A stretch of 64,000 nt of DNA from an uncultured Acidobacteriota bacterium. GTDB lineage: Bacteria > Acidobacteriota > Vicinamibacteria > Vicinamibacterales > CAVVIG01. Each line of letters starts with the position of its first letter. Positions within the stretch are counted from its first letter, which is position 1. Under the pieces are notes generated by a model that saw only the letters and a program-made list of their open reading frames with translations, ran no database searches and had not been told where the DNA came from. The stretch spans positions 175,563 through 239,562 of the forward strand of contig CAWFFB010000030.1 of NCBI GenBank assembly GCA_963814975.1. The letters are read 5' to 3'. The position numbers were made by a program, and so were the translations under genes. This document shows, one piece after another, positions 23,115-60,870 of this stretch.

Positions 23115-23119
23115 GAGAC

Positions 23120-28235: not shown

Positions 28236-28411
28236 GTGGAGGAACAGCTACGCGACCGCCGCTGGGACGAGCAGACGTCGGATCTTCAGCACGAGTGCCG
28301 TTCAGCTTAGTGCCGGCACCAAGGCCGGCCAAGTGCTCGGGCCGGAATTGCGCCCCTGCGGGGCGTCCTTGCGGTAGCATTGCGACCAACAACCGACCCA
28401 GGGAGCGAATC

Positions 28412-29428
28412 ATGAGCTTGAGGCTGCCGAGACTTGTCGTTGCGTTGTTCGCCTCCACCGCATGCGTGGCAGGCGCTCAGGCGCAATCGAGTTATCCGTG
28501 TGCGAACGATCTGCCCAATCCGTACCGTCTGGTGACGAATTGGGCGACGACGCCGCGCGGTTGGGCGCCGATCAGCGCGATCACGGTCGATGACAGGAAC
28601 AATTTCTGGGGCGTCGACCGCTGCGAGGAGCCAGGCTGCAAGTCCGTGTTCGAAATTGGCCCCGACGGGAAGACGATCCGGAATTTCGGCACCGATCTGT
28701 TCGTCGAGCCGCACCAGGTCGCCGTCGATCATGACGGCAATGTTTGGGTGGCTGATGCGAGCGCGAAAGGCGCGAAGGGTCTGCAGGTGACAAAACTGAG
28801 CCCGGATGGACGCGTGCTCTTGAAGCTCGGCAAGCCGGGTCAGGGACAGGGCAGCGCGGCGTTGGATAGTTTCGATTCACCGACCGGAGTCGCTGTTTCC
28901 AGCAATGGGGACGTCTTTATTGCCCAAGGCCATGGCGAGAACCCGAACAATTCGCGCATTCTGAAATTCACCAAGGACGGCAAGTTCATCAAGAGCTTCG
29001 CGACCTATGGCGCCGGGAACGGGCAATTGCGCTCGCCGCATGCGATTGCCATCGACCGCCAGGACCGGCTCTACGCCGCCGACCGCAGCAATTCGCGCGT
29101 CGTGGTGTTCGACAAGGAAGGGAATTTCCTCGCCGCCTGGAAACAGTTCGGCCGGCCGAGCGGAATCGCTGTCGACAAGAACGACATGCTCTATGTGATC
29201 GATTCCCAATCGTCGGACAACCAAGGCGCGGCCAATTACAATCCCGGCTGCAAGCGCGGCATCCGCGTGGGCAGTGTGAAGGACGGCAAGGTCACGGCCT
29301 ACATCCCGCCGCCGCCACCCGCCGATCCGAAATGGCAGCCGGCCATCGGCATCGCCGCGGATCAGAATGGCAATATCTACGCCGCCTCCGACGACCAGCA
29401 CAATGTGGTGAAGTGGGTGAAGAATTAA
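28412..29428 (+). CDS. secreted NHL-repeat six-bladed beta-propeller protein (PAL-like fold)
   Basis: SD gggag before the ATG. Signal peptide MSLRLPRLVVALFASTACVAGAQA. Repeated NHL-type blades (PHQVAVDHDGNVWVAD, PTGVAVSSNGDVFIA, PHAIAIDRQDRLYAADRSNSRVVVF, PSGIAVDKNDMLYVID). Confidence 0.8.
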   Translation: MSLRLPRLVVALFASTACVAGAQAQSSYPCANDLPNPYRLVTNWATTPRGWAPISAITVDDRNNFWGVDRCEEPGCKSVFEIGPDGKTIRNFGTDLFVEPHQVAVDHDGNVWVADASAKGAKGLQVTKLSPDGRVLLKLGKPGQGQGSAALDSFDSPTGVAVSSNGDVFIAQGHGENPNNSRILKFTKDGKFIKSFATYGAGNGQLRSPHAIAIDRQDRLYAADRSNSRVVVFDKEGNFLAAWKQFGRPSGIAVDKNDMLYVIDSQSSDNQGAANYNPGCKRGIRVGSVKDGKVTAYIPPPPPADPKWQPAIGIAADQNGNIYAASDDQHNVVKWVKN

Positions 29429-29793: not shown

Positions 29794-30906
29794 CTACTGG
29801 TTTTTCTGGCTGCGAGGGGTATCGCTGCGGGACCGCTTGATGTACTTCGTCAGTCCTCCGGAAGGAGTCTCGGCCCCAAATACGTTCCCTGCGGCGTCAA
29901 CCGCGACGCCACCGGCGGCGGTTCCCCCTTCGCGTATGTTGTTCGCGTGCGGCGGAATGAAGAACATCACTTTACCGTCCGCGTTGCCGATTCGAATACC
30001 CTTCCTCCAACCTGGGTTGACGAGGGAATCCGATCCCGAGTCGCTCGTGTAAACGATGTCATTCCTGATGTACAACCCGCTTGCGCGACTGAATTGCTTC
30101 CACTCGTCAAGGTACTTGCCGTCCTGATCGAAGATCTGGAGACGAAAGTTGGCGCGGTCAGCGACGAACAAGCGGCCACGGGAATCGAACGCCAGCGCGT
30201 GCGCCCGCTGGAGTTCCCCCGGGCCGGAACCGAACTTGCCCCAGCTCTTGAGGAACTTGCCGTTGCGATCGAACTTCACGATGCGTCCGACCCTGGTGGA
30301 CGGAGTCGTGTTCTCGCCTCCATCATGGCCGTCCGCCACGAAAATATCGCCGTTGGGGGCCGTGATGACGGCGGCCGGCTCGTTCAACAAATCGGGCGGA
30401 TCACCTGCCGTGCCTGGCTTTCCAAGCGTCATCAACACCTTGCCGTCCGGGCTGAACTTGATGACCGTGTGGCCCTTGGCTTTCTCTGCCGGAAACTTCT
30501 TCAGTTCGTCAGCGGTCGTCGCGCGCCCGTCGGTCACCCAAACATTCCCTGCTCGATCCACGTGAATCCCGTGTGGATAGACCAACATGCCCGCGCCAAA
30601 GCTCTTCACAAGCTTGCCGGACGGATCGAATTTGAGCACAACGGTCAGGTCCGATCCCGCACAGGAATCTGCGCCGCACCTGTCAACGGCCCAGACGCTC
30701 TTTCCGTCAGGATCGATATCGACCCCTGACGTATTTCCAAAGATTCGTCCTCCGGGAAATTTTCCCCAGTCGCTGATCGTTTCGTATGGATTGGGCAGAT
30801 CATTGACGGGTGTGACGGCACCCTGGCTATGGGCGCCTTTTCCATAGAGTGAGACGATCGCAACGGCTGCTGCAATCCTTGTTACTGCGAACAGACGGCT
30901 GCTCAT
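29794..30906 (-). CDS. secreted NHL-repeat beta-propeller protein, paralog of 28412..29428
   Basis: Signal peptide MSSRLFAVTRIAAAVAIVSLYG. Shared DLPNPY motif and blades (PHGIHVDRAGNVWVTD, PAAVITAPNGDIFVADGH, AHALAFDSRGRLFVADRANFRLQIF). Confidence 0.8.
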   Translation of the reverse strand: MSSRLFAVTRIAAAVAIVSLYGKGAHSQGAVTPVNDLPNPYETISDWGKFPGGRIFGNTSGVDIDPDGKSVWAVDRCGADSCAGSDLTVVLKFDPSGKLVKSFGAGMLVYPHGIHVDRAGNVWVTDGRATTADELKKFPAEKAKGHTVIKFSPDGKVLMTLGKPGTAGDPPDLLNEPAAVITAPNGDIFVADGHDGGENTTPSTRVGRIVKFDRNGKFLKSWGKFGSGPGELQRAHALAFDSRGRLFVADRANFRLQIFDQDGKYLDEWKQFSRASGLYIRNDIVYTSDSGSDSLVNPGWRKGIRIGNADGKVMFFIPPHANNIREGGTAAGGVAVDAAGNVFGAETPSGGLTKYIKRSRSDTPRSQKNQ

Positions 30907-31362
30907 CGAGCTTCCTTTCGGGACTTTAACAGTCATGGTCTCCACAGTCTAATCGTGAATTGAGAACGTCGGGGCGGAGACGCGTTCTCAGGGCGAACCG
31001 GGCATCCGAGCTCTCAGTGCCCGGCACGTTCTCGGACCTCACTCCCAGGTATATCGGAAGCCCGAGATTCGTAAAAGTCAGAGACTGTTGTGCGGCAGCG
31101 CGTCGGGTGTTGATCGACGGACGAGCGGTCAAACGGAGAGGGGAGCTCGTCGGGTTCGATCCTGCATTTCCGGCGCGGCGCCAAACTGGTCTATCGTTTC
31201 GTAAAGGACGACCCGGAACGCCGACGAACAAGCCGCATCTGGAATTCCACAGGCTGGACATGACCACCGACTCGTCGACTGAAAGTTATCCCGCCGGTAT
31301 CGGACAGAGGATTCTCGCCGACGTCGCATTTGGTCGGCGCAACAGGACGGACAGCTATTCCG

Positions 31363-32589
31363 ATGAAGCCTGACGATCTGGTGTTGATTGCCGGCGGCGG
31401 GCCGGTCGGGCTCCTTTGTGCCCTGTTGTTGGGGCGGCGCGGTCTGCGGGTCCGCCTGTTCGAAGCGTGTGCCTCGCCGCAGGAAGATCCGCGCGCGGCG
31501 ACCACCCACCCTGCAACCCTCGAGGTGCTCGGCGAGGCGGGACTGGCGGAAGACCTCGCCCGCGTCGGGCTGGTGGCGCCGATCGTTCAGTTCTGGGACC
31601 GGCCAACCGGCTCGCTCATTGCCGAATTCGACCACGCGATATTGAAAGACGACACAGCGTATCCCTTCGTCGTGCAGTGCGAACAATTCAAGACAGCGAT
31701 GCTCGCGCTGAAGCGACTCAGGGATCTTCCCAACGTCGAGATTCTGTTCGAACACGAAATCGTCGATGTGTCGCAGACCGGACGGCATGTCAGTGCCAGC
31801 GTGCGTGAACCAGGACGCGTCACGAGGCATGTCGGCGGGTATCTCATCGGTGCTGATGGGGGCCGCAGCACGGTGCGCAAGCAAACGGGCATTTCCTTCG
31901 ACGGGTTTACCTGGCCCGAACGCTTCATCGTGCTCACGACGCCCTTCGATTTCGAGACTGGTATCGGCTGCTGCACGCGGTCCTATTTCGCCGACCCCGA
32001 GGAGTGGTGCAATTGCTTCAAAGTGTCGGCGAACGGGCCGCCCGGCCTCTGGCGAGTGGTGTTTCCCACCAATCCCGATACCCCCGACGAGGAGCTGATC
32101 AGCGACAAGGCGGTTCAAGCGCGACTTCAGAAGTTTTTCCGGTTGTCGACGAAGTACAACATCGTTCACCGCAATCTGTACGTCACGCATCAGCGTGTGG
32201 CGAGCACCTTCCGCCTGGAGCGGGTGTTGCTCGCGGGCGACGCCGCCCATGTCAACAATCCCATCGGCGGCATGGGGCTGAACGGCGGCCTTCAGGACGC
32301 GGCCAATCTTTCGGAAAAGCTTGCGTCGGTTCTGCTGGATGGCGCGTCCGACCGCCAACTCGATCTCTACGACAGGCAGCGCCGCACGGTCGCGATCGAC
32401 TTCGTGCAGCAGCAGAGCATCGACAACAAGAAGCGGCTGGAGGCGCGCGATCCCGAGATCCGGGCCAGGCATCTCGCCGAACTGCGCGACATCGCCGCCG
32501 ATCCGTCGAGGGCGCGGCAATTTCTGCTGCGGACCTCCATGATCGCCAGCCAGCGCCGCGCGGCCGCCATGAGGCTGGAGGAAGCGTGA
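31363..32589 (+). CDS. FAD-dependent monooxygenase (aromatic-ring-hydroxylase, PheA/TfdB-like)
   Basis: DLVLIAGGGPVGLLCALLLGRRGLRVRLFE, YLIGADGGRSTVRK, RVLLAGDAAHVNNPIGGMGLNGGLQDA. Confidence 0.8.
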   Translation: MKPDDLVLIAGGGPVGLLCALLLGRRGLRVRLFEACASPQEDPRAATTHPATLEVLGEAGLAEDLARVGLVAPIVQFWDRPTGSLIAEFDHAILKDDTAYPFVVQCEQFKTAMLALKRLRDLPNVEILFEHEIVDVSQTGRHVSASVREPGRVTRHVGGYLIGADGGRSTVRKQTGISFDGFTWPERFIVLTTPFDFETGIGCCTRSYFADPEEWCNCFKVSANGPPGLWRVVFPTNPDTPDEELISDKAVQARLQKFFRLSTKYNIVHRNLYVTHQRVASTFRLERVLLAGDAAHVNNPIGGMGLNGGLQDAANLSEKLASVLLDGASDRQLDLYDRQRRTVAIDFVQQQSIDNKKRLEARDPEIRARHLAELRDIAADPSRARQFLLRTSMIASQRRAAAMRLEEA

Positions 32590-32590
32590 T

Positions 32591-33520
32591 GTGAAGCTCG
32601 CGGTCCCGGATCTCATCTCGAACTCGTACCTTCCGGCGGTGGCGGCCATCGAGCTCGGCTTCTTCAAGCGCGAGGGCCTTGACGTCACGCTCGAACTGAT
32701 CTTCCCGGTCGACAAGGCCTACGCGGCGCTCGCAAATGGCCAGGTCGATCTGGTCGGCGGCTCCGCGCACTCTGCCCTGGCTGCCTTTCCCGAGTGGGAC
32801 GGTGTGAAGCTGCTCTGCGCGCAGGGGCAAGGCATGTACTGGTTCCTCGTCATGCACGCGGATTTGCAGGCGAAGCGCGGCGATGCCGGCAGCGTCAAGG
32901 GACGCAGCATCGGGGCGGCACCCTGGGTGGATATGGGGCTGCGGGGTCTTTTGGAGGCGTCCGGCATCGATCTGGTACGCGACGACGTGCGTATTGCACC
33001 CGTGCCGGGGGCGGCAGGGGCCGGGGTCAACTTTGGGGTGACCGCGGCGAAAGCCCTGGAACAGCGCCAAATCGACGGATTCTGGGCCAACGGTATGGGC
33101 GCCGAGGTCGCGGTGCGTCGCGGCGTCGGTATGGTGGTCTTCGATGTCCGCCGTGGCGACGGCCCTGCGGCCTGTTTCCATTTCACCATGGCCTCGCTCG
33201 CGGCGGCAGATCGGCTGATCGCCCATTCGCCGGAGACTGCTGCGGCAGCGGTGCGCGCGATTGTCAACACCCATGCCGCGCTCAAGGCTGACCCCGGGCG
33301 TGCAACCGAAGTGGGGCGAAAACTTTTCCCACCCGCCGAGGCGGAACTGATCGCGGAGCTCATCCGGCGCGACCTGCCGTTCTATGATGCATCGATCTCA
33401 CAAGCCTCCGTTGCCGGCATGAACCGCTTCGCGCGCGCGTCGGGCATTCTGAACACCGACCCTGCCTACGATCGGATCGTCGCCACCCAATTTCGTGGCC
33501 TGTGGGAAATGGCGGATTGA
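32591..33520 (+). CDS. NMT1/THI5-like (SsuA/TauA-type periplasmic-binding-protein fold) protein without signal peptide
   Basis: MKLAVPDLISNSYLPAVAAIELGFFKREGLDVTLELIFPVDKAYAALANGQVDLVGGSAH.. is typical of the NitT/TauT-binding-protein fold. There is no leader or lipobox. GTG start 1 nt after the upstream stop. Confidence 0.65.
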   Translation: MKLAVPDLISNSYLPAVAAIELGFFKREGLDVTLELIFPVDKAYAALANGQVDLVGGSAHSALAAFPEWDGVKLLCAQGQGMYWFLVMHADLQAKRGDAGSVKGRSIGAAPWVDMGLRGLLEASGIDLVRDDVRIAPVPGAAGAGVNFGVTAAKALEQRQIDGFWANGMGAEVAVRRGVGMVVFDVRRGDGPAACFHFTMASLAAADRLIAHSPETAAAAVRAIVNTHAALKADPGRATEVGRKLFPPAEAELIAELIRRDLPFYDASISQASVAGMNRFARASGILNTDPAYDRIVATQFRGLWEMAD

Positions 33521-33564
33521 CACGGTTCGCACGTCGGACTTAGCCTGTCGACAGCAGGAGGGAC

Positions 33565-34440
33565 ATGGTGCCGTCGGTTCACGAAAAGCCGGTCATCAGG
33601 ATTGCGCCCAACAACCCGGTCTTCGATCTCCCGGTCATCGTCGGCATCGAGGAGGGCCTGTTCGACGCGGCCGGTCTGGACGTCGGTTTCTCCGCCACCT
33701 ATGCCGATCGCGAGAAGGACAAAGCGGAACGTCCGATCATGTCGCGGCTCAAAGAGCAGATGTTCGAGTGCGGGTCCGCGGACAGCTACAACGTCTGCGA
33801 ATGGGCGAGCATCGACCGGCTGGAACGCGGCGCGCGGGCCGGCAACATCGCGGCGCTGCGTGCCGCCGTGGCGGCGCAGGCCATCTTGACGTTCGATGAA
33901 GCGCTGCAGGTCCCTCGCGACCTCGCCGACGTGCCGGTTGTGGTTCAGGAGCTCACCGGCTCGCATTACTGTACGGTGCAGATGCTCGAAAGTGCGGTGG
34001 GCCCGGAGCACGTCAGGATCGAGCGCGGCGGGCTGCCACAAATGCGCTGGGCGGCGCTCGAGGCGGGCACCATCCGCATGGCAACGCTGATGGAGCCGTT
34101 CATCAGCCTCGGCCTGAAGGCAGGAGCGCACCTCATCGCTGCGTGCTTCTACCGCGGAGGCGAGGTGATCTCACCCGATCTGACGCCAGCGCAACGCAAG
34201 GCGTACTACGATGCGGAAAACCAGGCAGTGGATCGCATCAACGCCGACTTCTACAAGTACGCCCACCATGTCGCGGCGCACGCCAACGGCGCGTTGCAGC
34301 CGCATGAGCTGCTGCGGGCTTTCGTGCGCTACAAGCATGTCGACTCCTACGATCCGGTCCTGTTTGCCCGCACCTACGACTGGATGAAGGCGCGTGGGCT
34401 CACGGAAGGCGGCAGCGAACATGCCGCGCTCGTCATTTGA
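33565..34440 (+). CDS. second leaderless PBP-fold (NMT1-like) protein
   Basis: VIRIAPNNPVFDLPVIVGIEEGLFDAAGLDVGFSATY.. and later ..LMEPFISLGLKAGAHLIA resemble the same fold more weakly. No signal peptide. Confidence 0.5.
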   Translation: MVPSVHEKPVIRIAPNNPVFDLPVIVGIEEGLFDAAGLDVGFSATYADREKDKAERPIMSRLKEQMFECGSADSYNVCEWASIDRLERGARAGNIAALRAAVAAQAILTFDEALQVPRDLADVPVVVQELTGSHYCTVQMLESAVGPEHVRIERGGLPQMRWAALEAGTIRMATLMEPFISLGLKAGAHLIAACFYRGGEVISPDLTPAQRKAYYDAENQAVDRINADFYKYAHHVAAHANGALQPHELLRAFVRYKHVDSYDPVLFARTYDWMKARGLTEGGSEHAALVI

Positions 34441-35675
34441 ACCCGGCCTCGGCAGTCTATCGGTGGAACATCTTGCTGCTGCTGGCGGGCTCGCAGGCGA
34501 TCGCCTATATCGATCGCGTCAATTTCGCCGTGGTCGCGCCGCACCTCATCAAGGTCTACGACTACACTCCGACTCAAGTCGGCATTCTTCTCTCCGCGTT
34601 CAATTGGGCGTTCACCTTCTCGCTGCTGGCGGCGGGTCCGCTGGTCGATGTGATTCGTCCGCGGCGCGCCTATTCGATCGGGGTCGGATTCTGGTCGCTT
34701 GCGACGGCGCTCTGCAGCCTGACGAAATCATTTGCCCCGCTGCTGGTGTTCCGCGCCCTCGTCGGCGTCGGCGAGTCGGTAATGATTCCATCGGGCGCGC
34801 GGGTGATTCGCGAGACGTTCGACAAGAAGCATCGCGCCTTGGCTGTCGGAACCTTTTTCGCCGGCAACAGGATCGGCCTCACACTCGGCATCCCGCTCGC
34901 CTCGGTCGTCCTGGTGAATTGGGGGTGGGAGTGGGTCTTCTACATTACAGGATCGCTCGGCCTCTTCTGGGTCGCGTGGTGGCTCGCGGTTTATAGTCCG
35001 CCGCCTGACGAGGAGGCGACCCGCGCGCAGCCGCATGAAGCCCGGGACCAAATCAGGTGGGCGACGCTCCTCAAATACCCCACGACCTGGGGCGTCATGC
35101 TGGGGCAGGCTGGCTATCTCTACATCTACTACGTCTTCGCAACCTGGCTGCCCGGCTACCTTGTCTTGCAGCGCGGCCTGTCGACGCTGACCACCGGTTT
35201 CGTCGGGATGCTGCCGTTCCTCGTGGGAACGACGTGCGTCATCCTCGGAGGGTGGGCGGGGGACCGCCTGATCGCGGCGGGATGGCGCGTCACGCTGGTG
35301 CGCAAAGGGTTCGCTGTCGGCGGCCTTTTCGGCGGCACGGTTTTCACGATCGCAGGCGCCTACACTCCGGACGACGTCTTGGCGATCACCTTCCTGACGC
35401 TTTCAGTTGCAAGCGTCAGTTTCTCCACGGCGGCGGTGAACTCCATCCCGATCGACGTGGCGCCGGCCCACATCGTCTCCTCGCTGGTGTCCTTGCAGAA
35501 TTTCGGCGGGAACGTCGGCGGGTCCTTCGCGCCGCTCGTCACCGGCGCGTTGATTTCGGCTTCCGGAGATTTCACAGTTCCGCTGCTCGTGGCGGCCGGC
35601 GTTGCCCTCGTCTTCGGTTGCGGCTCGTATGGTCTGATTGTCGGCAATCTCGACCGGGAACTGGGAACGCGATAG
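34437..35675 (+). CDS. MFS transporter (anion:cation-symporter-like)
   Basis: 12-TM pattern with AYIDRVNFAVVAPHL.., GILLSAFNWAFTF, LVFRALVGVGESVMIPSGARVI. The TTG start overlaps the upstream stop. Confidence 0.8.
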   Translation: MNPASAVYRWNILLLLAGSQAIAYIDRVNFAVVAPHLIKVYDYTPTQVGILLSAFNWAFTFSLLAAGPLVDVIRPRRAYSIGVGFWSLATALCSLTKSFAPLLVFRALVGVGESVMIPSGARVIRETFDKKHRALAVGTFFAGNRIGLTLGIPLASVVLVNWGWEWVFYITGSLGLFWVAWWLAVYSPPPDEEATRAQPHEARDQIRWATLLKYPTTWGVMLGQAGYLYIYYVFATWLPGYLVLQRGLSTLTTGFVGMLPFLVGTTCVILGGWAGDRLIAAGWRVTLVRKGFAVGGLFGGTVFTIAGAYTPDDVLAITFLTLSVASVSFSTAAVNSIPIDVAPAHIVSSLVSLQNFGGNVGGSFAPLVTGALISASGDFTVPLLVAAGVALVFGCGSYGLIVGNLDRELGTR

Positions 35676-35684
35676 GAAAGCTCT

Positions 35685-36521
35685 ATGACATCGTCTGCAG
35701 ACTTCCCCAACCTGCCATCGGTCTGGCTTCACGAGCTCACATGGGAAGAGGTGGCGTCGTACCTCCGCCGCCGCGACACCATCATCGTCCCGTTCGGAAC
35801 CACCGAACAGCATGGTCCCGCCGGGTCGCTTGGACTGGATGGGTACGTGGCGATCGGCCTTGCCGAAGACGCTGCCAGGAAGGCCGGAGTGCTTTCGGCT
35901 CCTCCGGTGTGGTACGGCGACTCCAGCCATCACCTGGGGTTCCCCGGAACCATCTCCTTGAGAACCGAAACGGTCATGCAGATCGTGTACGACATCGTGC
36001 GCTCGCTGGCTCGCCACGGTTTCAAGCGGATCCTGCTGCTGAACGGGCACAAGTGGACCAACCTGCCGGCGCTCACCAGCGCCGCCCGCAACATCCGCGA
36101 ATTCGAGCTGCCTGGCGTGCTGACGGCCGTGGCGGATCCGATGTACCTGGCGCGCGGGGTCGCCGGAAAAATCAAGGAAGCAAACGAGCACCATGCGGGA
36201 GAATTGGAAGTGTCACAGGTCCTTTACAAATTTCCTCACACGATCAGGCCGGACAGATTTTCAGACGCGGCGTGCGACTTCAACCAAGCGCTCGGGCCCT
36301 TTGCCAACGACGACCTTTTTGGCGGCGGGCGTGACACGATTGACCAGCCCTGGACATCCTGGGACCAGAAGCGGATGGCGCCAACGGGCCAGTTCTCATC
36401 CAACCGCGCCGCTTCGTCAGAGAAGGGAAAGCAGTACCACGACTACATGGTGGACCGGCTCGTGGAATATCTGAACTGGTGGCAGTCCTACCAGGGGCCG
36501 CTCGGCCAGGAAACGGCGTGA
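35685..36521 (+). CDS. creatininase-family amidohydrolase
   Basis: TIIVPFGTTEQHGPAGSLGLDGYVA.., PPVWYGDSSHHLGFPGTISL, RILLLNGHKWTN, HHAGELEVS. Confidence 0.8.
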   Translation: MTSSADFPNLPSVWLHELTWEEVASYLRRRDTIIVPFGTTEQHGPAGSLGLDGYVAIGLAEDAARKAGVLSAPPVWYGDSSHHLGFPGTISLRTETVMQIVYDIVRSLARHGFKRILLLNGHKWTNLPALTSAARNIREFELPGVLTAVADPMYLARGVAGKIKEANEHHAGELEVSQVLYKFPHTIRPDRFSDAACDFNQALGPFANDDLFGGGRDTIDQPWTSWDQKRMAPTGQFSSNRAASSEKGKQYHDYMVDRLVEYLNWWQSYQGPLGQETA

Positions 36522-38209
36522 CGCACCTGAGCGCTGACGTGCTGGTGGTTGGAGCCGGCGGGGCCGGCATGTACGCCGCAATTGCGGCGGCTAGAGAGGG
36601 GAGCTCCGTCCTCCTGCTCGACAAGAACCTGATTGGACGCGGCGGTGCCACCATCATGGCTCAGATGACCGTGGCCGCGGCGATTGGGCATCAAGAGCCG
36701 GACGATTGGGTCCTCCATCTGGAAGATACCCTGGAGGCAGGACGAGGAATCTGCAACGAACCGCTTTCGGCGATGGTGTGCCAGCGGGGCCCTGAGCGGA
36801 TCCTCGAAATGGACCGCTGGGGCACCCGTTGGGCCCGCCAAGACGGGCATATCAAACAGGTCGGCGCACCAGGTCACCGCCGCAAACGCTGTTGCTACGT
36901 CGATTTTCTGAGTACCGGACCGGCCGTGGCGGGCACGCTGCGCCGGCAGGTCAGCGGCATGGCAAACGTCCGCCGACTGAGCAACGTCGCGGTCATTGAA
37001 ATTTGTGTTGCGGCCGGTCACGTCCGCGGTGCGGTCGCGTTGGATCTTTCGAGGGGATCGCTGCTCACGATCGCTGCCCGCACGGTGATTCTGGCGGCCG
37101 GCGGGTTGACGAAAATCTTTCGCCGCAACAGCGCCTCGGCAAACATGAGCGGAGAGGCGTACTGGCTGGCGCTGGAGGCTGGCGCCGAGCTGGTGGACAT
37201 GGAGTTCGTGCAGTTCTTTCCGATTGCGCATCTGGCGCCTCGACTGGTCGGCATGGACCCGATCATGTGGGATCCGTTCCGCTACAAGCTTGGCGGAAAA
37301 CTGTTGAACGGAAACTTCGAGGAGTTCATTCATCGATACGGTGGCCAGGATGAAGGACGCTACACCGCCGCTCGGGATCTGGCGTCGTACGCAATCCTGA
37401 AAGAGGTCGAGGCCGGACGCGGGTCGCCTCATGGGGGCGTGTATCTCGATTTTCGTCATGTCCCCGACGACAGCCTTCGAGAAGCCTTCGGGCCTGTCAT
37501 CGATCGCCTTCTGAAAAACGGGATTGATTTGACCCGGGTGCCGATTGAAGTGGCGCCGACGGCCCACTATCATATGGGCGGTATTGCGGTAAACGACCGC
37601 ATGGAGACCCGGGTTGCCGGTCTGTTTGCGGCGGGTGAAGCCGTCGGAGGAGCCAACGGCGCGAACCGCCTGTCGGGCAACGCCATCACCGAGGCCTTGG
37701 TCTTCGGAGAGCGCGCCGGCTTTTTTGCCGCCAAGGCCGCCATGGACACGGATCTGGACTGGTCACCAGCATACGTTCAGCGGGCTCGTGCGGAATTCTC
37801 CGCGCTCCGGCAACACAAAGAAAAAGGCTTGGGGCCCGCAGCCCTGCAGAACAGCATCCAGGACCTGATGTGGGAAAACGCCGGACCGTTTCGATCGGGC
37901 AAGAATCTCGAAAGGGCTCTGCCGGCGCTGCACGGATTCCATGATCAATTACAGGAGCTGGCGATAGCACCCGGCGACATTTTCAATCTGGATCTGCAGG
38001 ACTGGTACGAACTGAAGGCAATGCTCCGTAGCTCCGAGGCGGTCGTCATGGGAGCGTTGAACAGGGCAGAAAGCCGAGGAGCGCATCAGCGACTCGATTT
38101 TCCGCAGACGATCGCGGCGTTCGAGAGAAATCAGCTGTTGTCGCTCGAGGATGGAACGATGACGAGCCGCTGGACTTCTGTCGTCCGGTCGGGAATGCCA
38201 TCCGCCTGA
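36518..38209 (+). CDS. FAD-dependent SdhA/FrdA/NadB-family flavoprotein
   Basis: DVLVVGAGGAGMYAAIAAAREG, AHYHMGGIAV, GLFAAGEAVGGANGANRLSGNA, RAESRGAHQR. No His at the covalent-FAD position (GATIMAQMTVAAA). The GTG start overlaps the upstream stop as GTGA. Confidence 0.8.
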   Translation: MTHLSADVLVVGAGGAGMYAAIAAAREGSSVLLLDKNLIGRGGATIMAQMTVAAAIGHQEPDDWVLHLEDTLEAGRGICNEPLSAMVCQRGPERILEMDRWGTRWARQDGHIKQVGAPGHRRKRCCYVDFLSTGPAVAGTLRRQVSGMANVRRLSNVAVIEICVAAGHVRGAVALDLSRGSLLTIAARTVILAAGGLTKIFRRNSASANMSGEAYWLALEAGAELVDMEFVQFFPIAHLAPRLVGMDPIMWDPFRYKLGGKLLNGNFEEFIHRYGGQDEGRYTAARDLASYAILKEVEAGRGSPHGGVYLDFRHVPDDSLREAFGPVIDRLLKNGIDLTRVPIEVAPTAHYHMGGIAVNDRMETRVAGLFAAGEAVGGANGANRLSGNAITEALVFGERAGFFAAKAAMDTDLDWSPAYVQRARAEFSALRQHKEKGLGPAALQNSIQDLMWENAGPFRSGKNLERALPALHGFHDQLQELAIAPGDIFNLDLQDWYELKAMLRSSEAVVMGALNRAESRGAHQRLDFPQTIAAFERNQLLSLEDGTMTSRWTSVVRSGMPSA

Positions 38210-38211
38210 AC

Positions 38212-38559
38212 ATGTCGGCCCCCGACTCGGCTCGCGTGATGCGCCTTCGGGTCTGGCGCGGCTCGGCGCGGGTCGAGGGTTACTACCAGACTTATGAAGT
38301 TCCGTTCGAGGAGGGAATGTCGGTGCTGGACGCGTTGCGCTGGATTCGCGCCCGCCAAGACTCGAGTCTGGCCATTCGTTACAGTTGCATCAACGCGAAT
38401 GCCTGCAGGACCTGCATGGCGCTCGTCGACGGCGTTGTTGAATATACGTGCACGGCGCGGCTGAACGAATCCTGCGCAACCGTCGAACCGCTTCCTACCA
38501 GGCCGCTCATCCGGGATCTCGTGACGGATACTGCTCCCGCAGACGAGACACAACCCTAG
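38212..38559 (+). CDS. small 2Fe-2S protein corresponding only to the N-terminal domain of SdhB/FrdB
   Basis: 115 aa. MRLRVWRG..YYQTYEVPFEEGMSVLDALRWIRARQDSSLAIRYSCINANACRTCMALVDGVVEYTC shows the SdhB N-domain layout with Cys spacing C-x5-C-x2-C..C. No 4Fe-4S/3Fe-4S domain follows. Confidence 0.65.
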   Translation: MSAPDSARVMRLRVWRGSARVEGYYQTYEVPFEEGMSVLDALRWIRARQDSSLAIRYSCINANACRTCMALVDGVVEYTCTARLNESCATVEPLPTRPLIRDLVTDTAPADETQP

Positions 38560-39757: not shown

Positions 39758-41368
39758 ATGCATCCAGGCCAGTTCATTGCGCATTTCATCAACACCGCGA
39801 TCATCACGGCCATCGTCGCGGCGCTGGTGCTCTGGCGCTACAAGGTGGGTGTGCTCGCGGGCATGAGCACTGGCGGTACCGTGGAGCTCCCGATACCACC
39901 GCCAGCCTTGCGAGCGCCGGCCTCCGGGACCGCGGCCGCGGCGGACGCCGTCGTCTGGGAGCGGCAGGTGCGGCGCCGCGTCGACGTCGGCACCGCCCTG
40001 ATCGTGCTGGTGTGCTCGCTGCCGCTCGCATATCTCGCCGCCGCAGCCGTCGGCGACACGACGCCGATGCATGTGCTGGGGCAGACGGGTCAGTTCCTGC
40101 TTGCCGCGGTGCCGATCGCCGCCTTGCTGGCAGCCTATTCGTGGCGCCAGGCGCTACTTCATGCCGTCGCGCTGCTGGCCGGCGGCGCGGCGCTGATGCT
40201 GGCGGTGTCCGCTCTGCAGCGGTTGGCAGTCGGCCGGTCGCCGTCGCCGGATCAGTTCCTCAACGGTCTCATCTTCCTGCAGCTGACCGCGCTCAATGCC
40301 GTCGCGCCGCTGCTGGTGATGCTGGTGACCGCGCTGCCGCGGGTGCGGGGAGTGGCGCCGATGACGTTCGTGGGCCTGCTGGTGTTCAGTCTTGCGCCGC
40401 TCGGGGGATCTCAGCTGACCCGCGCACTGGCCATGACCAGAACCGGCAGCGAGCTGGTCGTGAACGCGGGCCTGTCGATCGGGTTCGTCCTGCTGGCGGT
40501 GCCGACCGGCTGGGTGGCATGGCGGTGCCTGGCGGCAACGGCACGGGCGTTCGAGACCAAGCGTGTCGCCGACAGCGAGGTGCTGGTCAACGTGTGGTGG
40601 GTGATGTTCGTGTCCGCGTTCTGGATTGACTACGTGAACGTGCACCCCTGGTCGTGGCCGCCGCTGCTGATCGCCGTGGCCGTGTGCGTGGCGTTCGCCG
40701 TCCTCTACCGCTTGACGCTTCGGCGGTGGCTGCCGCCCTCGCGACCGGCATGCCGGACGCTGCTCCTGTTGCGAGTGTTCGCCGACGTGTCGCGTACTGA
40801 ACGGCTGTTCGATCGGGTTGCCGGCCGCTGGCGATGGCTGGGTCCCGTGACGACGATCGCGGCGCCGGACGTGGCGGCCCGGACGGTGGACCCCAGCGAC
40901 TTCCTGGAGTTCGCCACCGGCCGGATGCACGCGCGGTTCGTGAATTCGGCCGCCGACCTCGACGAGCGCCTGCGGCATCTCGACGGGGCTCCCGATCCCG
41001 ACGGCCGCTATCGTGTGAGCGAGCTGTGCTGTCGAGCCGACACCTGGCGCGCGGCTGTCGTAAGCCTGATGGATCGCGCCGACGCCGTTCTGATGGACCT
41101 CCGGGACTTCTCGAAGAAGCGCGCCGGCTGCGCCTTCGAACTGCAGCAGCTCGGCCAGCGCTTCGACGCGCATCGGCTGGTGCTGGCCGTGGATGCCAGC
41201 ACGGATCGCGAGTTTCTCGCCACGAACCTCGCCAGCGGCGCGGCCCGCATAGTCGAGCTGCCACGGTACGCCAGCGATCGCGATCTGGAGCACGTGTTCG
41301 AGGAAGTTGTTGCCGGGGCGTATGGCCAGGATGCAGCGCCACCTCGAGCCACGACGACGGTACGCTGA
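39758..41368 (+). CDS. polytopic membrane protein with ~200-aa C-terminal soluble domain, unknown function
   Basis: 536-aa ORF with about 9-10 hydrophobic segments. The soluble tail reads LLLLRVFADVSRTERLFDRVAGRWRWLGPVTTIAAPDVA..DGRYRVSELCCRADTWRAAV..AVLMDLRDFSKKRAGCAFELQQL. It is divergent from 39000..39734 with a 23-nt gap. Confidence 0.55.
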   Translation: MHPGQFIAHFINTAIITAIVAALVLWRYKVGVLAGMSTGGTVELPIPPPALRAPASGTAAAADAVVWERQVRRRVDVGTALIVLVCSLPLAYLAAAAVGDTTPMHVLGQTGQFLLAAVPIAALLAAYSWRQALLHAVALLAGGAALMLAVSALQRLAVGRSPSPDQFLNGLIFLQLTALNAVAPLLVMLVTALPRVRGVAPMTFVGLLVFSLAPLGGSQLTRALAMTRTGSELVVNAGLSIGFVLLAVPTGWVAWRCLAATARAFETKRVADSEVLVNVWWVMFVSAFWIDYVNVHPWSWPPLLIAVAVCVAFAVLYRLTLRRWLPPSRPACRTLLLLRVFADVSRTERLFDRVAGRWRWLGPVTTIAAPDVAARTVDPSDFLEFATGRMHARFVNSAADLDERLRHLDGAPDPDGRYRVSELCCRADTWRAAVVSLMDRADAVLMDLRDFSKKRAGCAFELQQLGQRFDAHRLVLAVDASTDREFLATNLASGAARIVELPRYASDRDLEHVFEEVVAGAYGQDAAPPRATTTVR

Positions 41369-41412: not shown

Positions 41413-41473
41413 CGGAACAAGGCCAACGTCGCGGGAATCGTGCGAGAAGGTTGTTTCCTCAGCCTGGAGTCGG
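41413..41473. repeat. copy A of a 61-62-nt conserved non-coding repeat (possible structured RNA or REP-like element)
   Basis: cggaacaaggccaacgtcgcgggaatcgtgcgagaaggttgtttcctcagcctggagtcgg versus 63930..63991: 5 mismatches plus 1 indel. The indel breaks any shared reading frame. Confidence 0.75.
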
Positions 41474-43038
41474 AACCGCTCGCTCCGATCGAAGCGACCC
41501 GGCTGGGCTCGAGACTGGTCTGGTATCTCCCGCGCGGCTTCGCGCCAAGCGGCCTTTATACAGGCATGACAGGAAATCGTACACCACGAGCTCCTGCGCG
41601 CGCTGTTCGGCTCTGAACAGCCGATTGAGATGCATGTGAACGTAGCTTTCCGCGAGCACCGGGATCGGCACATCCAGCGATCCCGAACGCTCCGCGGCGT
41701 GCAGGGCTGCTAGCGCCTCTTGTGCGCGCGTCGAGCGATCAGCGAACGCGTCCAGCCACCCTGTCGACGCGTCGGATGGCTCTGAGTCGAGCAGACGGTG
41801 CAGGCCTGGTCCGACAGCGCGGTACTTCGCCGCCAGCTGACGTGCGAACGGCGCATCGGCGCGGAACTCCCGGCCGAAGATCTCGCGGAGCTTCTGCATC
41901 AACCGGAGTTTCGCCTCCAGATCGAAGCCGAGGTCCGACAGCAGCGCGTCGATGCCAGCGATAGCGGCTTGCCATCGCAGAACGGGGCTGCCGATGCCGC
42001 TCACCGGATCGAGCAGCTGGACGATGGTTTCACTATCGGCCCAGAAGTAGCGTTCGGCAGCGTCGATCCCAGCCTCGCCGCCGTAGCGTTCGATTTCACG
42101 CTCGTAGGTGTCGAACCCGAGCCGGCGCACGAGCCCATCGCCGAGCGCCTTCGCGACGACGCGCTCGATGCGGCGTTGAATTGTGGCGGCGTGTGTCTTG
42201 CCGGCCGCATGCAGGCGCCATCTGAGATGCTCGTCGGGATCGGTGTAACGGATGAAGAACCATCGATCGATCACGCGCTTCGACAGCAGTGCCTTGCTGA
42301 CCGGGCCGATCAGCTGTGACAGCAATCGGTCGGCGGTGCTCGCGCTTGTGTACAGCTTGGCAAACACCCATTCCGACCCCGGCGCGAACGTGCGCGGAAT
42401 CGAGATCGGATCGCAACGGCGCGGCGTCGGGGCGGGTGCGCTCGCTGCCGTCTGTGGTCGCACGACTCGCGGAATCAGCAGCTCGTGCATGTAACGCCCA
42501 TCATCGCCTTCGGCGCACAGTTCATCCGGGCCCGGGTACATCTCTGTGAGCGTCGCGGATTCACGGTCCTTCAGCAAGTGGATCAGCGAGTCGATCGCGA
42601 GAGCGTTGTCGAGATCAACGGGGAGCGTGTTGTCGGCGTCGGTCAGCACGACCCAGCGCGGCAGCCGACGCCGGACTCTTCGTCGAGCGCCTCGACGAGC
42701 GACACCTCGCGATACTCATAGCGCTCGGCGAATACCGCCCGAAAGCGACGGAGTCGATCGTGGTCGGCGCCTGGAGTCAGCCGGCGCAGGACGTCGACGC
42801 CGCGGATGATCTCGGCCACGAGCGCTCGATCGAGCGTCGCCCGGAACGCCGGGCGGACGAGATCGACTTGAAAGAGACGCGTCAGGTCGACCTTGACGGG
42901 GAAGGTCCCCAGCCGGTGTGCGATGCCGCGGTACCGTGCGGGTTCCGCTCCGAGCCCATCGCGGTCGAGCGATTCGAGCAACGCTGCCACCTGCGCCAAC
43001 TCCCGCGCCACAGGTTCACCCTCGGGAGCGCGGCGCAA
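41459..43038 (-). pseudogene. LanB-type lanthipeptide/thiopeptide dehydratase remnant (N-terminal and internal deletions)
   Basis: The C-terminal elimination (SpaB_C) domain is intact in sequence: PGSEWVFAKLY..RWFFIRYTDPDEHLRWRL..GFDTYEREIERYGG..YVHMHLNRLF. Upstream, in another frame, is a short piece of the glutamylation domain (..RFRAVFAERYEYREVSLVEALDEESGVG). The end of that domain (LPRWVVLTDADNTLPVDLDN) follows directly. From my memory of LanB architecture I estimate about 150 N-terminal and about 300 internal codons are missing. Confidence 0.7.
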
Positions 43039-43145: not shown

Positions 43146-45194
43146 TCAATCGATAGCGCGCGGCGAGGACTTGTTTGGCAGTGCGCGATAGACCTGGACC
43201 CTTCCCCACCCGTCCTCGAACTGTCCTATCCACTCCAAGTCTCCCCGCCCCTCGAGTATCGTGACAGCTGTGACGTATGGTGCGGGATCAAGGAATCGCT
43301 CATGGATGATGACGTACACCGCACCGCGTCTCAGCAGCTCGTCCACCCAGGGTCCCGCGGGGAAATCGCGAAGAGCGTCCAACATGGTCCGATACGCGGG
43401 AGGATAGTAGCCGCTATAGCCGTTGAGCAGCGGATGCCAGTGAAAGGTTGATAGGTACTGGTAGATCGCGTCGTTCCTCGGAAACCAGTGGGGCAGCGGC
43501 ATGGGTAATTCCGCCACGATCCCGGTCGGTTGCTGGCGCAGCCAGCGATAGGCCGAGGGCACGCCCGAGGGCAGGCGCATCAGCGACGGGGGAGAGAACA
43601 GCTCGATCAGGAGCAGCACGGCTGTGCACACGGGAAGCGCTCGGCGCAGGTGAGTCGAGGAGACCCAAGTCATCACACGCGCAAACCCGAAACCGGCGAG
43701 GACCGCAAGCGCAAGCAGCACTAGCACACCGAACCGGGTGGGTACCCTCAGGCTGCGATACGGTGCGATCCAGGTATAGAGCACCTCATACAATGGCCCA
43801 TTGAAACCCAGCGTGGCGGACACCGAGAATGCGAGGATCACACCGTACATCAAGCGGTGGCGTGTCGGTGGCCACACGCCGAGCGCCGCGAGTGCGAGAG
43901 GGAGCAAGCCGGGAAAAAGATTGGTCTCCTGTCCGCCGAACTCTCTTTGGGTCCATCCGTACACGACGCTGTCGGCCGTCGCAGCCAGATAACTGGCCGC
44001 CGTGGCGCTGTAACGACGAACCTCGTCGACCGCGCGCCCACCTGTCATGTCCAGATTGGCCAGCAAGGGCTGCGCATAACAGGTCGCCACGGTGATGGCA
44101 AACAGCGCGCCGGCCAGGAGCGCGCCTGCGGTACGCACCTGTATACCCCGCGCGCGTGTCAGCAGGATGATCGGTGCGGTGGCGATGATGGTTGTCACGA
44201 AAAAGATAGCGTAATAGATGCTCGAAAGCGTCTGAAGGGCGACGAACATGCCGGTGTACAGGCCGTCTCGGAGCCGGCCCTGCTCGAGGGTACGGTGGAG
44301 CGCCAGAAGCGCGAAGGGCATCCACTGTCCCCACAGCAGCTCGAGATGCATGTAATGGTCGATCCGATAGAATCCGAACGCGTAGATAATGCCCGCCAAC
44401 ACGCCGGCCGTTGCCTGTCGTGTCAGGTGCTGCACCAGCAGAAACGCCCCGAGGCCAGACAGCACGAAGCTGGCGAGCACCAGCAGGTTGTAGGCGAGGA
44501 CCTGATCCATGCCGATCCACAGAAGAGGCCCTGCCAGCACGCCTTGAAGCAGCACCGGATCCGAGTAGGCGAGGGTACGAGCTGCCGGGAAGAAGATGTT
44601 GCCCTCAAACAGATCGACCGGGTCGTGCCACAAGTGACGGGCAATCGAGGCCAGACGCCAGATGTTGAAAAAGGAGTCGTGGTGCGCAGCAACGTGCGTC
44701 GACAGCCCTGTGACCTGTGGCCAAGTCATCACCAGCGTCAGCCCAACGAACAGCCCTGCCACTCGAGCGGACATGCCGACGCGGGGTAAACGCCGCCAAG
44801 CGTCCCAGATCCGCAGATGGAGCGGGCACCGACGCACGAGCGTGTGACGAAGCGCCAGCACCACGAATGCCAGCAGGAGTACGCGCCAGCTGGACATCAC
44901 CGACACTCTGATGCCGATCGCTGCGAAGCGGAAACCGCCCAACACCGCCACCCACGCTCCTGCAACGAGTAGCACGAGGCCGGACGCATCGGCTGCGCGG
45001 ACCCATGCAGGAAGAGCGCGGCAGTCTGGCGCCTGGCGACTCATGGACGCACGAAACGTGCATAGCTCCGCTGGCGTCATTCGGCGCAGAGCTCGCCTGA
45101 ATCGGGAGACATGTCGGTCTCGTGTTTCGGAGGGCTCCATGGACTCGTTCATACGGCAGCCGGCAGCGAGCTTAGACAAATACCGTCGTGTCAT
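43146..45194 (-). CDS. large polytopic membrane protein, possibly GT-C-type glycosyltransferase-like
   Basis: 682-aa ORF with at least 12 hydrophobic segments and a C-terminal soluble part (..YQYLSTFHWHPLLNGYSGYYPP..). The architecture resembles PMT/ArnT/YfhO-like enzymes. I cannot point to a catalytic motif. The real start may be an internal Met. Confidence 0.5.
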   Translation of the reverse strand: MTRRYLSKLAAGCRMNESMEPSETRDRHVSRFRRALRRMTPAELCTFRASMSRQAPDCRALPAWVRAADASGLVLLVAGAWVAVLGGFRFAAIGIRVSVMSSWRVLLLAFVVLALRHTLVRRCPLHLRIWDAWRRLPRVGMSARVAGLFVGLTLVMTWPQVTGLSTHVAAHHDSFFNIWRLASIARHLWHDPVDLFEGNIFFPAARTLAYSDPVLLQGVLAGPLLWIGMDQVLAYNLLVLASFVLSGLGAFLLVQHLTRQATAGVLAGIIYAFGFYRIDHYMHLELLWGQWMPFALLALHRTLEQGRLRDGLYTGMFVALQTLSSIYYAIFFVTTIIATAPIILLTRARGIQVRTAGALLAGALFAITVATCYAQPLLANLDMTGGRAVDEVRRYSATAASYLAATADSVVYGWTQREFGGQETNLFPGLLPLALAALGVWPPTRHRLMYGVILAFSVSATLGFNGPLYEVLYTWIAPYRSLRVPTRFGVLVLLALAVLAGFGFARVMTWVSSTHLRRALPVCTAVLLLIELFSPPSLMRLPSGVPSAYRWLRQQPTGIVAELPMPLPHWFPRNDAIYQYLSTFHWHPLLNGYSGYYPPAYRTMLDALRDFPAGPWVDELLRRGAVYVIIHERFLDPAPYVTAVTILEGRGDLEWIGQFEDGWGRVQVYRALPNKSSPRAID

Positions 45195-56048: not shown

Positions 56049-56050
56049 GA

Positions 56051-60846: not shown

Positions 60847-60870
60847 GCGCTTCGGAAGAGGTCGACACAC

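Follow-up and report, generated by a model that had tools for sequence, protein, structure and literature searches.

Organization of the operon

We analysed a 64-kb stretch of DNA (positions 175,563 to 239,562 of contig CAWFFB010000030.1), hereafter the window, from an uncultured bacterium of the Vicinamibacterales (Acidobacteriota), which contains a packed cluster of seven open reading frames (ORFs), designated g1 to g7, on the plus strand at window positions 31363–38559. The cluster comprises genes for a group A flavin adenine dinucleotide (FAD) monooxygenase (g1, 31363–32589), a protein of NMT1/SsuA fold (g2, 32591–33520) and a second protein with the fold of periplasmic binding proteins (PBPs; g3, 33565–34440), both of them putative cytoplasmic enzymes, a major facilitator superfamily (MFS) transporter (g4, 34437–35675), a creatininase-fold metal-dependent hydrolase (g5, 35685–36521), a flavoprotein resembling TfrA, SdhA and NadB (g6, 36518–38209) and a single-domain 2Fe-2S protein (g7, 38212–38559). 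We refer to g5-g6-g7 as the trio.

A single nucleotide separates the stop codon of g1 (TGA, 32587–32589) from the GTG start of g2 at 32591 (TGA-T-GTG), and gaps of 44, 9 and 2 nt occur, respectively, between g2 and g3, g4 and g5, and g6 and g7. The g3 and g4 genes overlap in TTGA (34437–34440) and g5 and g6 in GTGA (36518–36521); the longest ORF for g6 begins at 36479. Third-position GC content is of coding type in six of the seven genes (0.73–0.83), with g6 falling under the corresponding filter. A previous sequence-only reading of this DNA, made with no database searches, had described the same seven packed genes with these gaps and overlaps and had assigned a family to each. The ORFs and junctions read as described, and the Pfam and NCBIfam searches agree with the seven family calls, that of g3 being recognisable only through a profile of its family. 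A scan for promoters and terminators returned counts no higher than those from shuffled sequence, and no operon gene follows g7. We consider it very probable that the seven genes form a catabolic operon.

Conservation and modular composition

A scan with a g5 alignment, taking one genome per species, identified 80 loci, and a scan of metagenome contigs with g3 contributed 80 more; the gene content of these loci was scored by tblastn with the seven operon proteins. All seven genes appear in the same order in a metagenome-assembled genome (MAG) of the Vicinamibacterales (L010) and in loci L105–L108, with 77–86% identity, and at least seven contigs, all from Acidobacteriota (L001, L011, L012, L014, L089, L112 and L113), contain six genes and lack that for the MFS transporter. 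The gene order thus recurs in many independent contigs, with protein identities of 60–86%, and is also maintained locally in two short contigs (L094 and L095) showing 97% DNA identity to the window. Judged by these matches, the window most likely derives from a Vicinamibacterales-like soil acidobacterium. Co-occurrence of the set outside the window is therefore confirmed, and we found no close orthologue within a characterised pathway.

However, the seven genes, which the sequence-only reading had presented as an intact seven-gene cluster, are not one indivisible unit but two modules that are also found apart: module A, with g1-g2-g3 plus a carboxylate transporter, and module B, with g5-g6-g7. 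The operon is a fusion of both. The g1-g2 pair is kept even where the trio is absent, and g2 always accompanies g1. In a frequent alternative unit, compact and of four genes (L118–L130; for instance, L127, 6680–10864), g2-g1 is divergent from a gene for a TctC receptor, which is followed by g3. The flanks of this unit are otherwise unrelated and, because it recurs amid them, the hydroxylase and both PBP-fold proteins, together with a receptor of the tripartite-transporter type, may suffice as a module of their own.

The trio was found in 27 loci from Acidobacteriota, Actinomycetota, Bacillota, delta-proteobacteria/Desulfobacteraceae and one MAG of the Dehalococcoidales (Chloroflexota). Its carriers include Nitriliruptoraceae and Acidimicrobiales, as well as the cultured Nocardioides soli DSM 105498 and Streptosporangium sp. 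NPDC051022, both of which have UbiD and Mo-hydroxylase genes in addition to the trio. Mycolicibacterium litorale and Pseudonocardia spinosispora have related creatininase-like loci devoid of the flavoprotein gene, that of M. litorale combining the creatininase-like gene with those for UbiD/UbiX, the PBP-fold protein F22 and a Mo-hydroxylase. Searches for cultured carriers on plasmids returned only distant or differently organised homologues, on pRHL2 of Rhodococcus jostii RHA1, pTC2 of Paenarthrobacter aurescens and pHAMBI540a of Neorhizobium.

Truncation of the cluster in the window

In the loci with the full set of seven genes, the operon is preceded by genes for DUF2848 (FAH-like), PNPOx-like and Cupin_7 proteins and followed by genes for a UbiD decarboxylase and a three-subunit molybdenum (Mo) hydroxylase, plus CoxG in L107. 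Upstream of g1, the Cupin_7 gene is full-length (137 aa) in L105–L108 and L010. In the window, tblastn with the cupin of L106 detected only a remnant (31221–31319, plus strand), 68% identical over residues 2–35 (34 codons) and ending around 44 nt upstream of g1; likewise, blastn alignments of the window with L010 and L105–L108 end at around 31318. The rest of the cupin gene has been deleted, and the upstream edge of the operon is thus a deletion scar. We found no genes or remnants for UbiD, UbiX, the Mo-hydroxylase, a TPP-enzyme or F22 (a different PBP-fold protein, which takes the equivalent place in other phyla) in the whole window. With UbiD and the Mo-hydroxylase missing and only 34 codons of the cupin left, what the window holds is not a complete unit but a shortened version of a cluster that comprises at least 14 genes. 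The cluster had been described as intact, which is correct for the seven genes themselves, all of them whole, but not for the cluster, which is truncated with respect to its closest full versions.

The flanks of the operon appear to be plastic, because homology of the two 97%-identical contigs to the window breaks inside g1 and after g7. In L094 (1–2578), it stops at window position 32436, and an unrelated 372-aa gene comes next; in L095 (5215–5598), it stops right after the stop codon of g7, where an ORF begins that resembles, by eye, the N-terminus of a transposase. These breaks reflect either strain-level rearrangement or assembly chimerism.

The flavoprotein and its 2Fe-2S partner

The product of g6 combines FAD_binding_2 and Succ_DH_flav_C domains. 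Its best NCBIfam model is that of a reductase, TfrA (of the thiol:fumarate reductase TfrAB), with 389 bits versus a cut-off of 718; it also stays below the cut-off for NadB (TIGR00551, 292.9 versus 452.75) and, indeed, below every NCBIfam cut-off, including those of the complex-II models. In an alignment with Escherichia coli FrdA, His44 is replaced by Ala and His232 by Phe, whereas Arg287, His355 and Arg390 are retained. These three residues are kept, and His44 is lost, in all 27 members of the g6 family, which show Ala, Ser or Asn at position 44 and Phe or Tyr, once Ile, at position 232. In FrdA, His44 carries the covalent FAD, His232 binds one of the carboxylates, Arg287 donates the proton and His355 and Arg390 form a carboxylate clamp. 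Covalent FAD is needed for succinate oxidation in the SdhA/FrdA family, and relatives acting as reductases of monocarboxylic enoates have lost one carboxylate site. The g6 protein is thus predicted to bind FAD non-covalently. The loss of the histidine for covalent FAD and of one carboxylate histidine, with retention of the catalytic arginine and one clamp, argues for an enoate-type reductase and not a succinate dehydrogenase. The sequence-only reading had termed it a dehydrogenase, which is probably the wrong direction.

Its predicted partner, g7, is a protein of 115 aa that contains only a Fer2_3 domain (8e-20), has no 4Fe-4S part and is the counterpart of the N-terminal domain of SdhB and TfrB. 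The g7 family has four conserved cysteines in the motif C-x5-C-x2-C-x11-C. Genes for a three-cluster SdhB/FrdB subunit or a membrane anchor were not found adjacent to g6 and g7. In the loci of anaerobes, the place of g7 is taken by full TfrB-like or SdhB-like proteins, and in three Bacillota MAGs the partner of g6 is a full TfrB-like subunit (Fer2_3 + Fer4 + CCG). We read g6 and g7 as a putative reductase, soluble and transferring two electrons, which would act on a C=C bond beside a carboxylate or carbonyl and in which g7 would be the electron relay.

The creatininase-fold hydrolase

The g5 product belongs to the creatininase family of Pfam (PF02633, 7e-61; 206 bits, versus a gathering score of 31.3, over residues 16–262). 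It scores below the equivalog cut-offs for creatininase (TIGR04448, 108.3 versus 235), IolN (NF041098, 102.7 versus 245) and MftE (TIGR03964, 99.7 versus 172), and a creatinine or mycofactocin role was rejected on these curated cut-offs together with the missing partner genes. Fifteen orthologues share invariant E41, H43, D52 and the block E168-H169-H170-G172-E173, with H122 nearly invariant. These residues presumably correspond to the motifs E-x-H...D...H and H-A-G-x-x-E of the Pseudomonas creatininase; under this mapping, a Glu ligand for the second metal would be expected two residues after H122, where g5 does not have Glu.

Homologues with E-values below 1e-20 amount to 1599, nearly all from metagenomes or MAGs, the best being 93% identical; g5 adjoins g6 in 27 loci. 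Orthologues also occur in other cyclic-amide contexts, which suggests that they are a clade of versatile ring-opening hydrolases: beside a D-Glu cyclase and a luciferase-like monooxygenase; with M24 peptidase, MFS, PALP and RidA genes on plasmids pRHL2 and pTC2; and next to hydantoinase A/B. Characterised members of the creatininase family mostly cleave C–N bonds, and we propose g5 as a cyclic-amide ring-opening hydrolase. As a separate observation, plasmids pRHL2 of R. jostii RHA1 (L091, 10687–16258) and pTC2 of P. aurescens TC1 (L092, 10820–16472) share an operon with genes for an M24 'Xaa-Pro peptidase', a creatininase-like protein (55% identical to g5), an MFS transporter, a PALP enzyme and RidA. 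This operon represents a further uncharacterised pathway for cyclic amides, with a hydrolase of the g5-type clade.

The leaderless binding-protein-fold proteins

The g2 protein matches NMT1 (PF09084, 5e-10). By itself, g3 has no match in Pfam, in NCBIfam or in a PDB sequence search, but a profile of its family (26 members) matches SsuA (PDB 2x26, 4e-9) and 12 of the 26 members match PF09084, so that the earlier assignment of g3 to the PBP fold holds. A Cys-Glu-Trp motif (C78, W80), specific to this family, is invariant among its members, which are few (453 representatives among 1.84 billion proteins). At least 120 clusters with more than 81% identity occur in soil metagenomes, suggesting that the function of g3 is ecologically common. 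In hhalign comparisons, the g3 family aligns end to end with the dihydroxyphthalate-decarboxylase-like family, to which F22 belongs (probability 92%, E 7e-7), although it is distant (17% identity).

Both proteins share the NMT1/SsuA fold with the periplasmic components of NitT/TauT importers, but have neither an export signal nor an adjoining permease or ATPase gene. Their sequences begin at the mature fold, with no hydrophobic leader, unlike the true periplasmic binding proteins of related loci, and none of the relatives read shows a signal peptide. Homologues of ATP-binding cassette (ABC) ATPases or permeases were absent across the 64 kb of the window (E ≤ 1e-3). The sequence-only reading had noted both the missing signal peptides and the lack of ABC genes nearby, and had concluded that the pair are more likely cytoplasmic enzymes than transport components; both observations hold, and the conclusion is supported, the pair being conserved beside enzymes. 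Enzymes with this fold include DszB, THI5 and MqnA. The g3 family might be a new class of cytoplasmic PBP-fold enzymes, with Cys-Glu-Trp as the putative catalytic motif. A DszB-like desulfinase role for g3 was considered and is unsupported, DszB being absent among the profile matches.

A leaderless homologue of g3 (48% identity) that keeps the Cys-Glu-Trp motif is also present in plasmid pHAMBI540a of Neorhizobium galegae (L093, 9974–13413).

The hydroxylase and the transporter

The g1 protein contains the FAD_binding_3 domain (PF01494, 9e-59), and its closest structures in PDB are those of PnpA (6ain, 2e-68) and HspB (7da9, 4e-55), the next matches having E-values of 1e-29 or weaker. It remains under every NCBIfam equivalog cut-off. 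Both its domain and its closest similarities place g1 in the PnpA/HspB clade of group A flavoprotein monooxygenases. PnpA and HspB are ipso-substituting enzymes that attack the position para to a ring hydroxyl and expel a substituent; the substrate of PnpA is a phenol.

The g4 protein matches MFS_1 (5e-55) and, as best subfamily, TIGR00893 (4e-61), which we take to be a group of anion:cation symporters, and is the presumed importer of an organic acid. Uptake through an MFS protein had been suggested before; the family call stands, but the gene is an optional part, since it is present in L010 and L105–L108 and absent from the six-gene versions.

Genes accompanying the trio

A gene for UbiD or for the large subunit of a Mo-hydroxylase lies within 10 kb of the trio in 15 of its 27 loci, and at least 12 contain a PBP-fold protein of either g3 or F22 type; F22 is around 46% identical to an annotated 4,5-dihydroxyphthalate decarboxylase (Novosphingobium and Marinibacterium plasmids). 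The UbiD of the relatives is closest (9e-78) to PDB 6H6V, which is PtHmfF, a decarboxylase of the heteroaromatic dicarboxylate furan-2,5-dicarboxylate (PMC8988006). The Mo large subunit is closest to the alpha subunit of 4-hydroxybenzoyl-CoA reductase, followed by CO, ketone, nicotinate and quinoline enzymes. Other recurrent neighbours are UbiX, GntR regulators, MFS transporters and NitT/TauT ABC importers with true periplasmic NMT1 proteins. Actinobacterial loci contain class III and class V aminotransferases, a decarboxylase dependent on pyridoxal phosphate, a 2-oxoacid:ferredoxin oxidoreductase and a PALP enzyme, and three Bacillota MAGs have an NCS1 permease near the trio; one Bacillota locus (L007) also shows PALP, SHMT, M20/M42 and M24 genes behind a sigma-54 activator. 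As a whole, the neighbours of the trio are those expected for the catabolism of a heteroaromatic polycarboxylate.

Proposed pathway and alternatives

We tentatively propose a scheme, in which we place slightly less than even confidence, comprising uptake, para-hydroxylation, steps by the PBP-fold proteins, ring reduction and hydrolytic opening. The MFS transporter g4 would import a hydroxylated (hetero)aromatic acid, which g1 would hydroxylate para to its existing hydroxyl, possibly expelling a substituent. The g2 and g3 proteins would then catalyse non-oxidative steps, most likely decarboxylation, or tautomerisation. Next, g6, fed by g7, would reduce the ring C=C bond adjacent to the carboxylate or to a lactam carbonyl, and g5 would hydrolyse the cyclic amide thus formed, giving an amino or oxo acid with an open chain, so that module B would open the ring without oxygen. 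The likeliest substrate class would be a 2-pyridone-type carboxylate, such as a relative of hydroxypicolinate or hydroxynicotinate, which might be supplied by other organisms or by Mo-hydroxylase and UbiD genes elsewhere in the genome. We lean slightly towards an N-heterocyclic substrate because nitrogen-handling enzymes accompany the trio. Catabolism of an N-heterocycle or cyclic amide had already been suggested by the sequence-only reading; its catabolic part fits the neighbours (Mo-hydroxylases, UbiD/UbiX, aminotransferases and NCS1/NitT-type importers), whereas its N-heterocyclic part is something that we infer. What the analysis establishes are the gene families, their conservation and modular arrangement, the substitutions in the active site of g6 and the lack of signal peptides and ABC partners; the catalytic assignments, the direction of g6 and the substrate are all inferred.

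Several observations weigh against this scheme. Neither the Mo-hydroxylase nor UbiD is present in the window, and the operon has no adjoining regulator gene there; the upstream steps assumed from relatives may therefore not apply. No specific relationship links g2 to the decarboxylase-like family of PBP-fold proteins (hhalign probability of 4%), and the AlphaFold2 model of g3, built from a very shallow alignment, reached a predicted local distance difference test (pLDDT) value of 46.7 and was discarded as unusable. Additionally, the tie of g3 to ring opening is loose, because the gene often occurs without the trio (in 18 of the 25 metagenome loci with enough flank, versus seven with it) and sits in an ABC-importer operon in Neorhizobium, directly upstream of genes for an NMT1 binding protein with a Tat/Sec signal, an ABC permease and an ATPase; this arrangement fits g3 either as a cytoplasmic enzyme acting on the imported acid or in a binding role. 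The orthologues of g5 with 54–62% identity are found in differing contexts, and g5 itself scores about equally, at around 100 bits and below threshold, against creatininase, the C–C hydrolase IolN and the peptidase MftE. Finally, the presumed direction of g6 stems from the logic of its residues and the putative substrate from genomic context.

The same operon could also act on an O-heterocyclic or carbocyclic hydroxy acid (a derivative of furan-2,5-dicarboxylate or 2-furoate, or a phenolic di-acid), which we regard as unlikely; g5 would then be a lactonase or, like IolN, a C–C hydrolase, acting on a cyclic dione after its reduction, without any release of nitrogen. This substrate would agree with the proximity of the relatives' UbiD to PtHmfF and of their Mo large subunit to 4-hydroxybenzoyl-CoA reductase, with the phenol-acting PnpA as the best match of g1, with the similarity of F22 to a phthalate-pathway decarboxylase, with g5 matching IolN approximately as well as creatininase and with the TctC and MFS transporters that accompany module A, which are associated with carboxylate uptake. 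Conversely, the C–N bond is the usual target of the creatininase family, and NCS1 and NitT/TauT-type importers, aminotransferases, PALP enzymes and M20 carbamoylase-like peptidases point to nitrogenous rings. The furoate route, moreover, uses CoA activation and no reduction (PMC8091172), and an AMP-binding gene of the CoA-ligase type appeared in only one related locus, the flavoprotein-less L072. Somewhat less probable still is that g6 and g7 act oxidatively after ring opening, with g6 as a NadB-like amino-acid or acyl dehydrogenase or oxidase that converts the product of g5, an amino di-acid, to an imino or oxo acid or an enoate and sends the electrons through the 2Fe-2S protein to the respiratory chain. 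The equivalent of His232 is Phe, Tyr or Ile family-wide, whereas NadB keeps it as His244; anaerobes have as partner a subunit of TfrB type (thiol/heterodisulfide-like), of a kind typical of reductases, and several loci already have aminotransferases for the amino group. This has to be set against a nadB score close to that of TfrA (293 versus 389 bits), the likewise non-covalent FAD of NadB, the suitability of a dehydrogenase for aerobic hosts and a one-domain partner that could pass electrons to other acceptors.

Were g2 and g3 orphan or cytoplasmic ligand-binding proteins (a transport accessory, a sensor or a substrate chaperone), only three to four catalytic steps would remain. We deem this improbable, even though binding proteins dominate the fold, the g3 family is annotated as NitT/TauT binding protein in the sources and the 48%-identical homologue directly precedes ABC importer genes in Neorhizobium, because signal peptides are absent in the window, in the relatives read and in Neorhizobium, ABC genes are absent from the window, g3 is strongly conserved with its invariant Cys-Glu-Trp and a decarboxylase-related PBP-fold protein sits at the equivalent place in other phyla. 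An ordinary locus for creatinine, creatine or hydantoin, with g5 as a true creatininase, would account for the Pfam match (7e-61), for the label 'creatinine amidohydrolase' given to homologues by JGI and for the 62%-identical homologue beside hydantoinase A/B, but is very improbable: g5 reaches 108 bits of the 235 demanded from creatininases, genes for creatinase, sarcosine oxidase and N-methylhydantoinase are not in the cluster, and the conserved partners are instead the flavoprotein, the 2Fe-2S protein, UbiD and the Mo-hydroxylase.

Returning to reductive opening of an N-heterocycle, we entertain, with more doubt than conviction, the wider proposal that the trio represents an undescribed, oxygen-independent, reduce-then-hydrolyse ring opening of hydroxylated heteroaromatic acids, present in multiple phyla and usually acting after a Mo-hydroxylase and an HmfF-like UbiD, with g3 as a new class of enzymes. 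If true, this would assign new chemistry to three large and little-understood groups of proteins: sub-threshold 'creatininases', SdhA/TfrA-like flavoproteins without the hallmarks of complex II and SsuA/NMT1-like proteins without a leader, which annotation routinely mistakes for ABC binding proteins. It would also imply a widespread dioxygenase-free opening of heteroaromatic rings in abundant, mostly uncultured soil bacteria, the route being carried by Vicinamibacterales, other Acidobacteriota and several Actinomycetota, and could explain the breakdown of an abundant N-heterocyclic acid of soil, such as a pyridine mono- or dicarboxylate. To our knowledge, the catabolic genes for several of these pyridine carboxylates are poorly known or not known. 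The cultured carriers of the trio, N. soli DSM 105498 and Streptosporangium sp. NPDC051022, render the question testable.

Other features of the window

Directly upstream of the operon, there are two convergent genes for NHL-repeat beta-propellers of 377 and 383 aa (28295–29428, plus strand, and 29794–30945, minus strand). Further upstream, at around 7–12 kb from the operon, a class III aminotransferase gene is followed by two aldehyde dehydrogenase genes (19207–24586, plus strand); this set could serve amine or omega-amino-acid catabolism, and a link to the operon product is conceivable. The N- and C-terminal domains of saccharopine dehydrogenase are located on separate short ORFs, approximately 3 kb apart (11445–12101 and 15262–15894, plus strand), after which comes an ORF of only 289 aa with the N-domain of Orn/Arg decarboxylases (15894–16763, plus strand); these may be split or frameshifted genes of the carboxynorspermidine type.

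On the other side of the operon, a Lant_dehydr_C (lantibiotic dehydratase C-terminal) gene (41459–42649, minus strand) lies beside two large ORFs with no significant Pfam match (39758–41368, plus strand, and 43146–45194, minus strand), and may be part of a peptide natural-product locus. A biosynthetic link between this locus and the operon was rejected, as the gene is missing from all related loci with flanks, and even the relatives with 97% identity have other flanks. The window also contains a set for glycerol utilisation (54474–58383), with a DAO-family flavoprotein that has the C-terminal domain of alpha-glycerophosphate oxidase, an FGGY-family sugar kinase and an MIP channel, and a pair of neighbouring DUF3300 and DUF2950 genes (59644–61854, plus strand).

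Comparison with known systems

No paper describing this gene set was found among open-access full texts, so a prior description is possible; the open-access literature on pyridine-dicarboxylate catabolic clusters was equally negative for the set. This agrees with the sequence-only reading, which had not recognised it as any described pathway.

The nicotinate route of Eubacterium barkeri, also reported in Azorhizobium caulinodans, employs nicotinate dehydrogenase, 6-hydroxynicotinate reductase and enamidase, and shares the proposed logic: a Mo-hydroxylase places a hydroxyl beside the nitrogen, reduction of the pyridone ring falls to an Fe-S flavoprotein, and the cyclic enamide is then opened by a metal hydrolase. 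The reductive route from 6-hydroxynicotinate to tetrahydro-6-oxonicotinate (THON) follows this order of hydroxylation, reduction and hydrolysis (PMC3511419). A Mo-hydroxylase is likewise next to the trio in relatives, whereas the window has none; also, the enzymes of the operon are TfrA/SdhA-like and creatininase-fold, with the addition of an FAD monooxygenase and two PBP-fold proteins. In comparison, the known 6-hydroxynicotinate reductase is of the Fer2/ASKHA type and the enamidase belongs to the amidohydrolase superfamily. Reductive pyrimidine catabolism proceeds through dihydropyrimidine dehydrogenase, dihydropyrimidinase and a carbamoylase. Its reduction of a ring C=C bond, hydrolysis of a cyclic amide and deacylation are shared features, and the trio of Bacillota is near an NCS1 permease and M20/M42 peptidases, but all three enzymes belong to other families. 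Therefore, the operon enzymes appear to be unrelated to those of the nicotinate and pyrimidine routes, the resemblance being one of logic.

The nic, pic and HspB (Pseudomonas putida S16) pathways have in common with the operon and its relatives the homology of g1 to HspB and PnpA, as well as Mo-hydroxylases and non-oxidative decarboxylases. A gene of the Asp_Glu_race/Amdase family, a superfamily that includes maleate isomerase, is found near related creatininase-like genes. No ring-cleaving dioxygenase, deformylase, or maleamate amidase or other amidase was found among the annotated ORFs of the window, some small ORFs being unscanned, and ring opening by the operon, in contrast to these pathways, appears to be reductive and hydrolytic. 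With TfrAB, SdhA, FrdA and NadB, g6 and g7 share the domain architecture, Arg287, His355 and Arg390, and a 2Fe-2S partner similar to the N-domain of SdhB and TfrB, but g6 lacks the histidine for covalent FAD, has Phe for His232 and is not accompanied by a membrane anchor; in turn, the aerobic version of g7 lacks the 4Fe-4S/3Fe-4S or CCG domains of the TfrB and SdhB partners.

The hmf genes (PMC8091172) and lumazine cluster I of Cupriavidus (PMC12391406) share with the relatives the pairing of UbiD with a Mo-enzyme, and the relative at L003 also has an Amidohydro_2 gene; nevertheless, creatininase-fold, TfrA-like and cytoplasmic PBP-fold proteins are missing from those clusters, none being found in the lumazine paper, and UbiD and the Mo-enzyme are missing from the window. 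Similarly, g2 and g3 belong, without leaders, to the NMT1/SsuA superfamily, like PBP enzymes of the 4,5-dihydroxyphthalate decarboxylase type, with which the g3 family aligns over its full length, but the similarity of g3 is distant and g2 shows no relationship to them by hhalign. We thus rate the novelty of the system as a familiar catabolic logic executed by unfamiliar families of enzymes.

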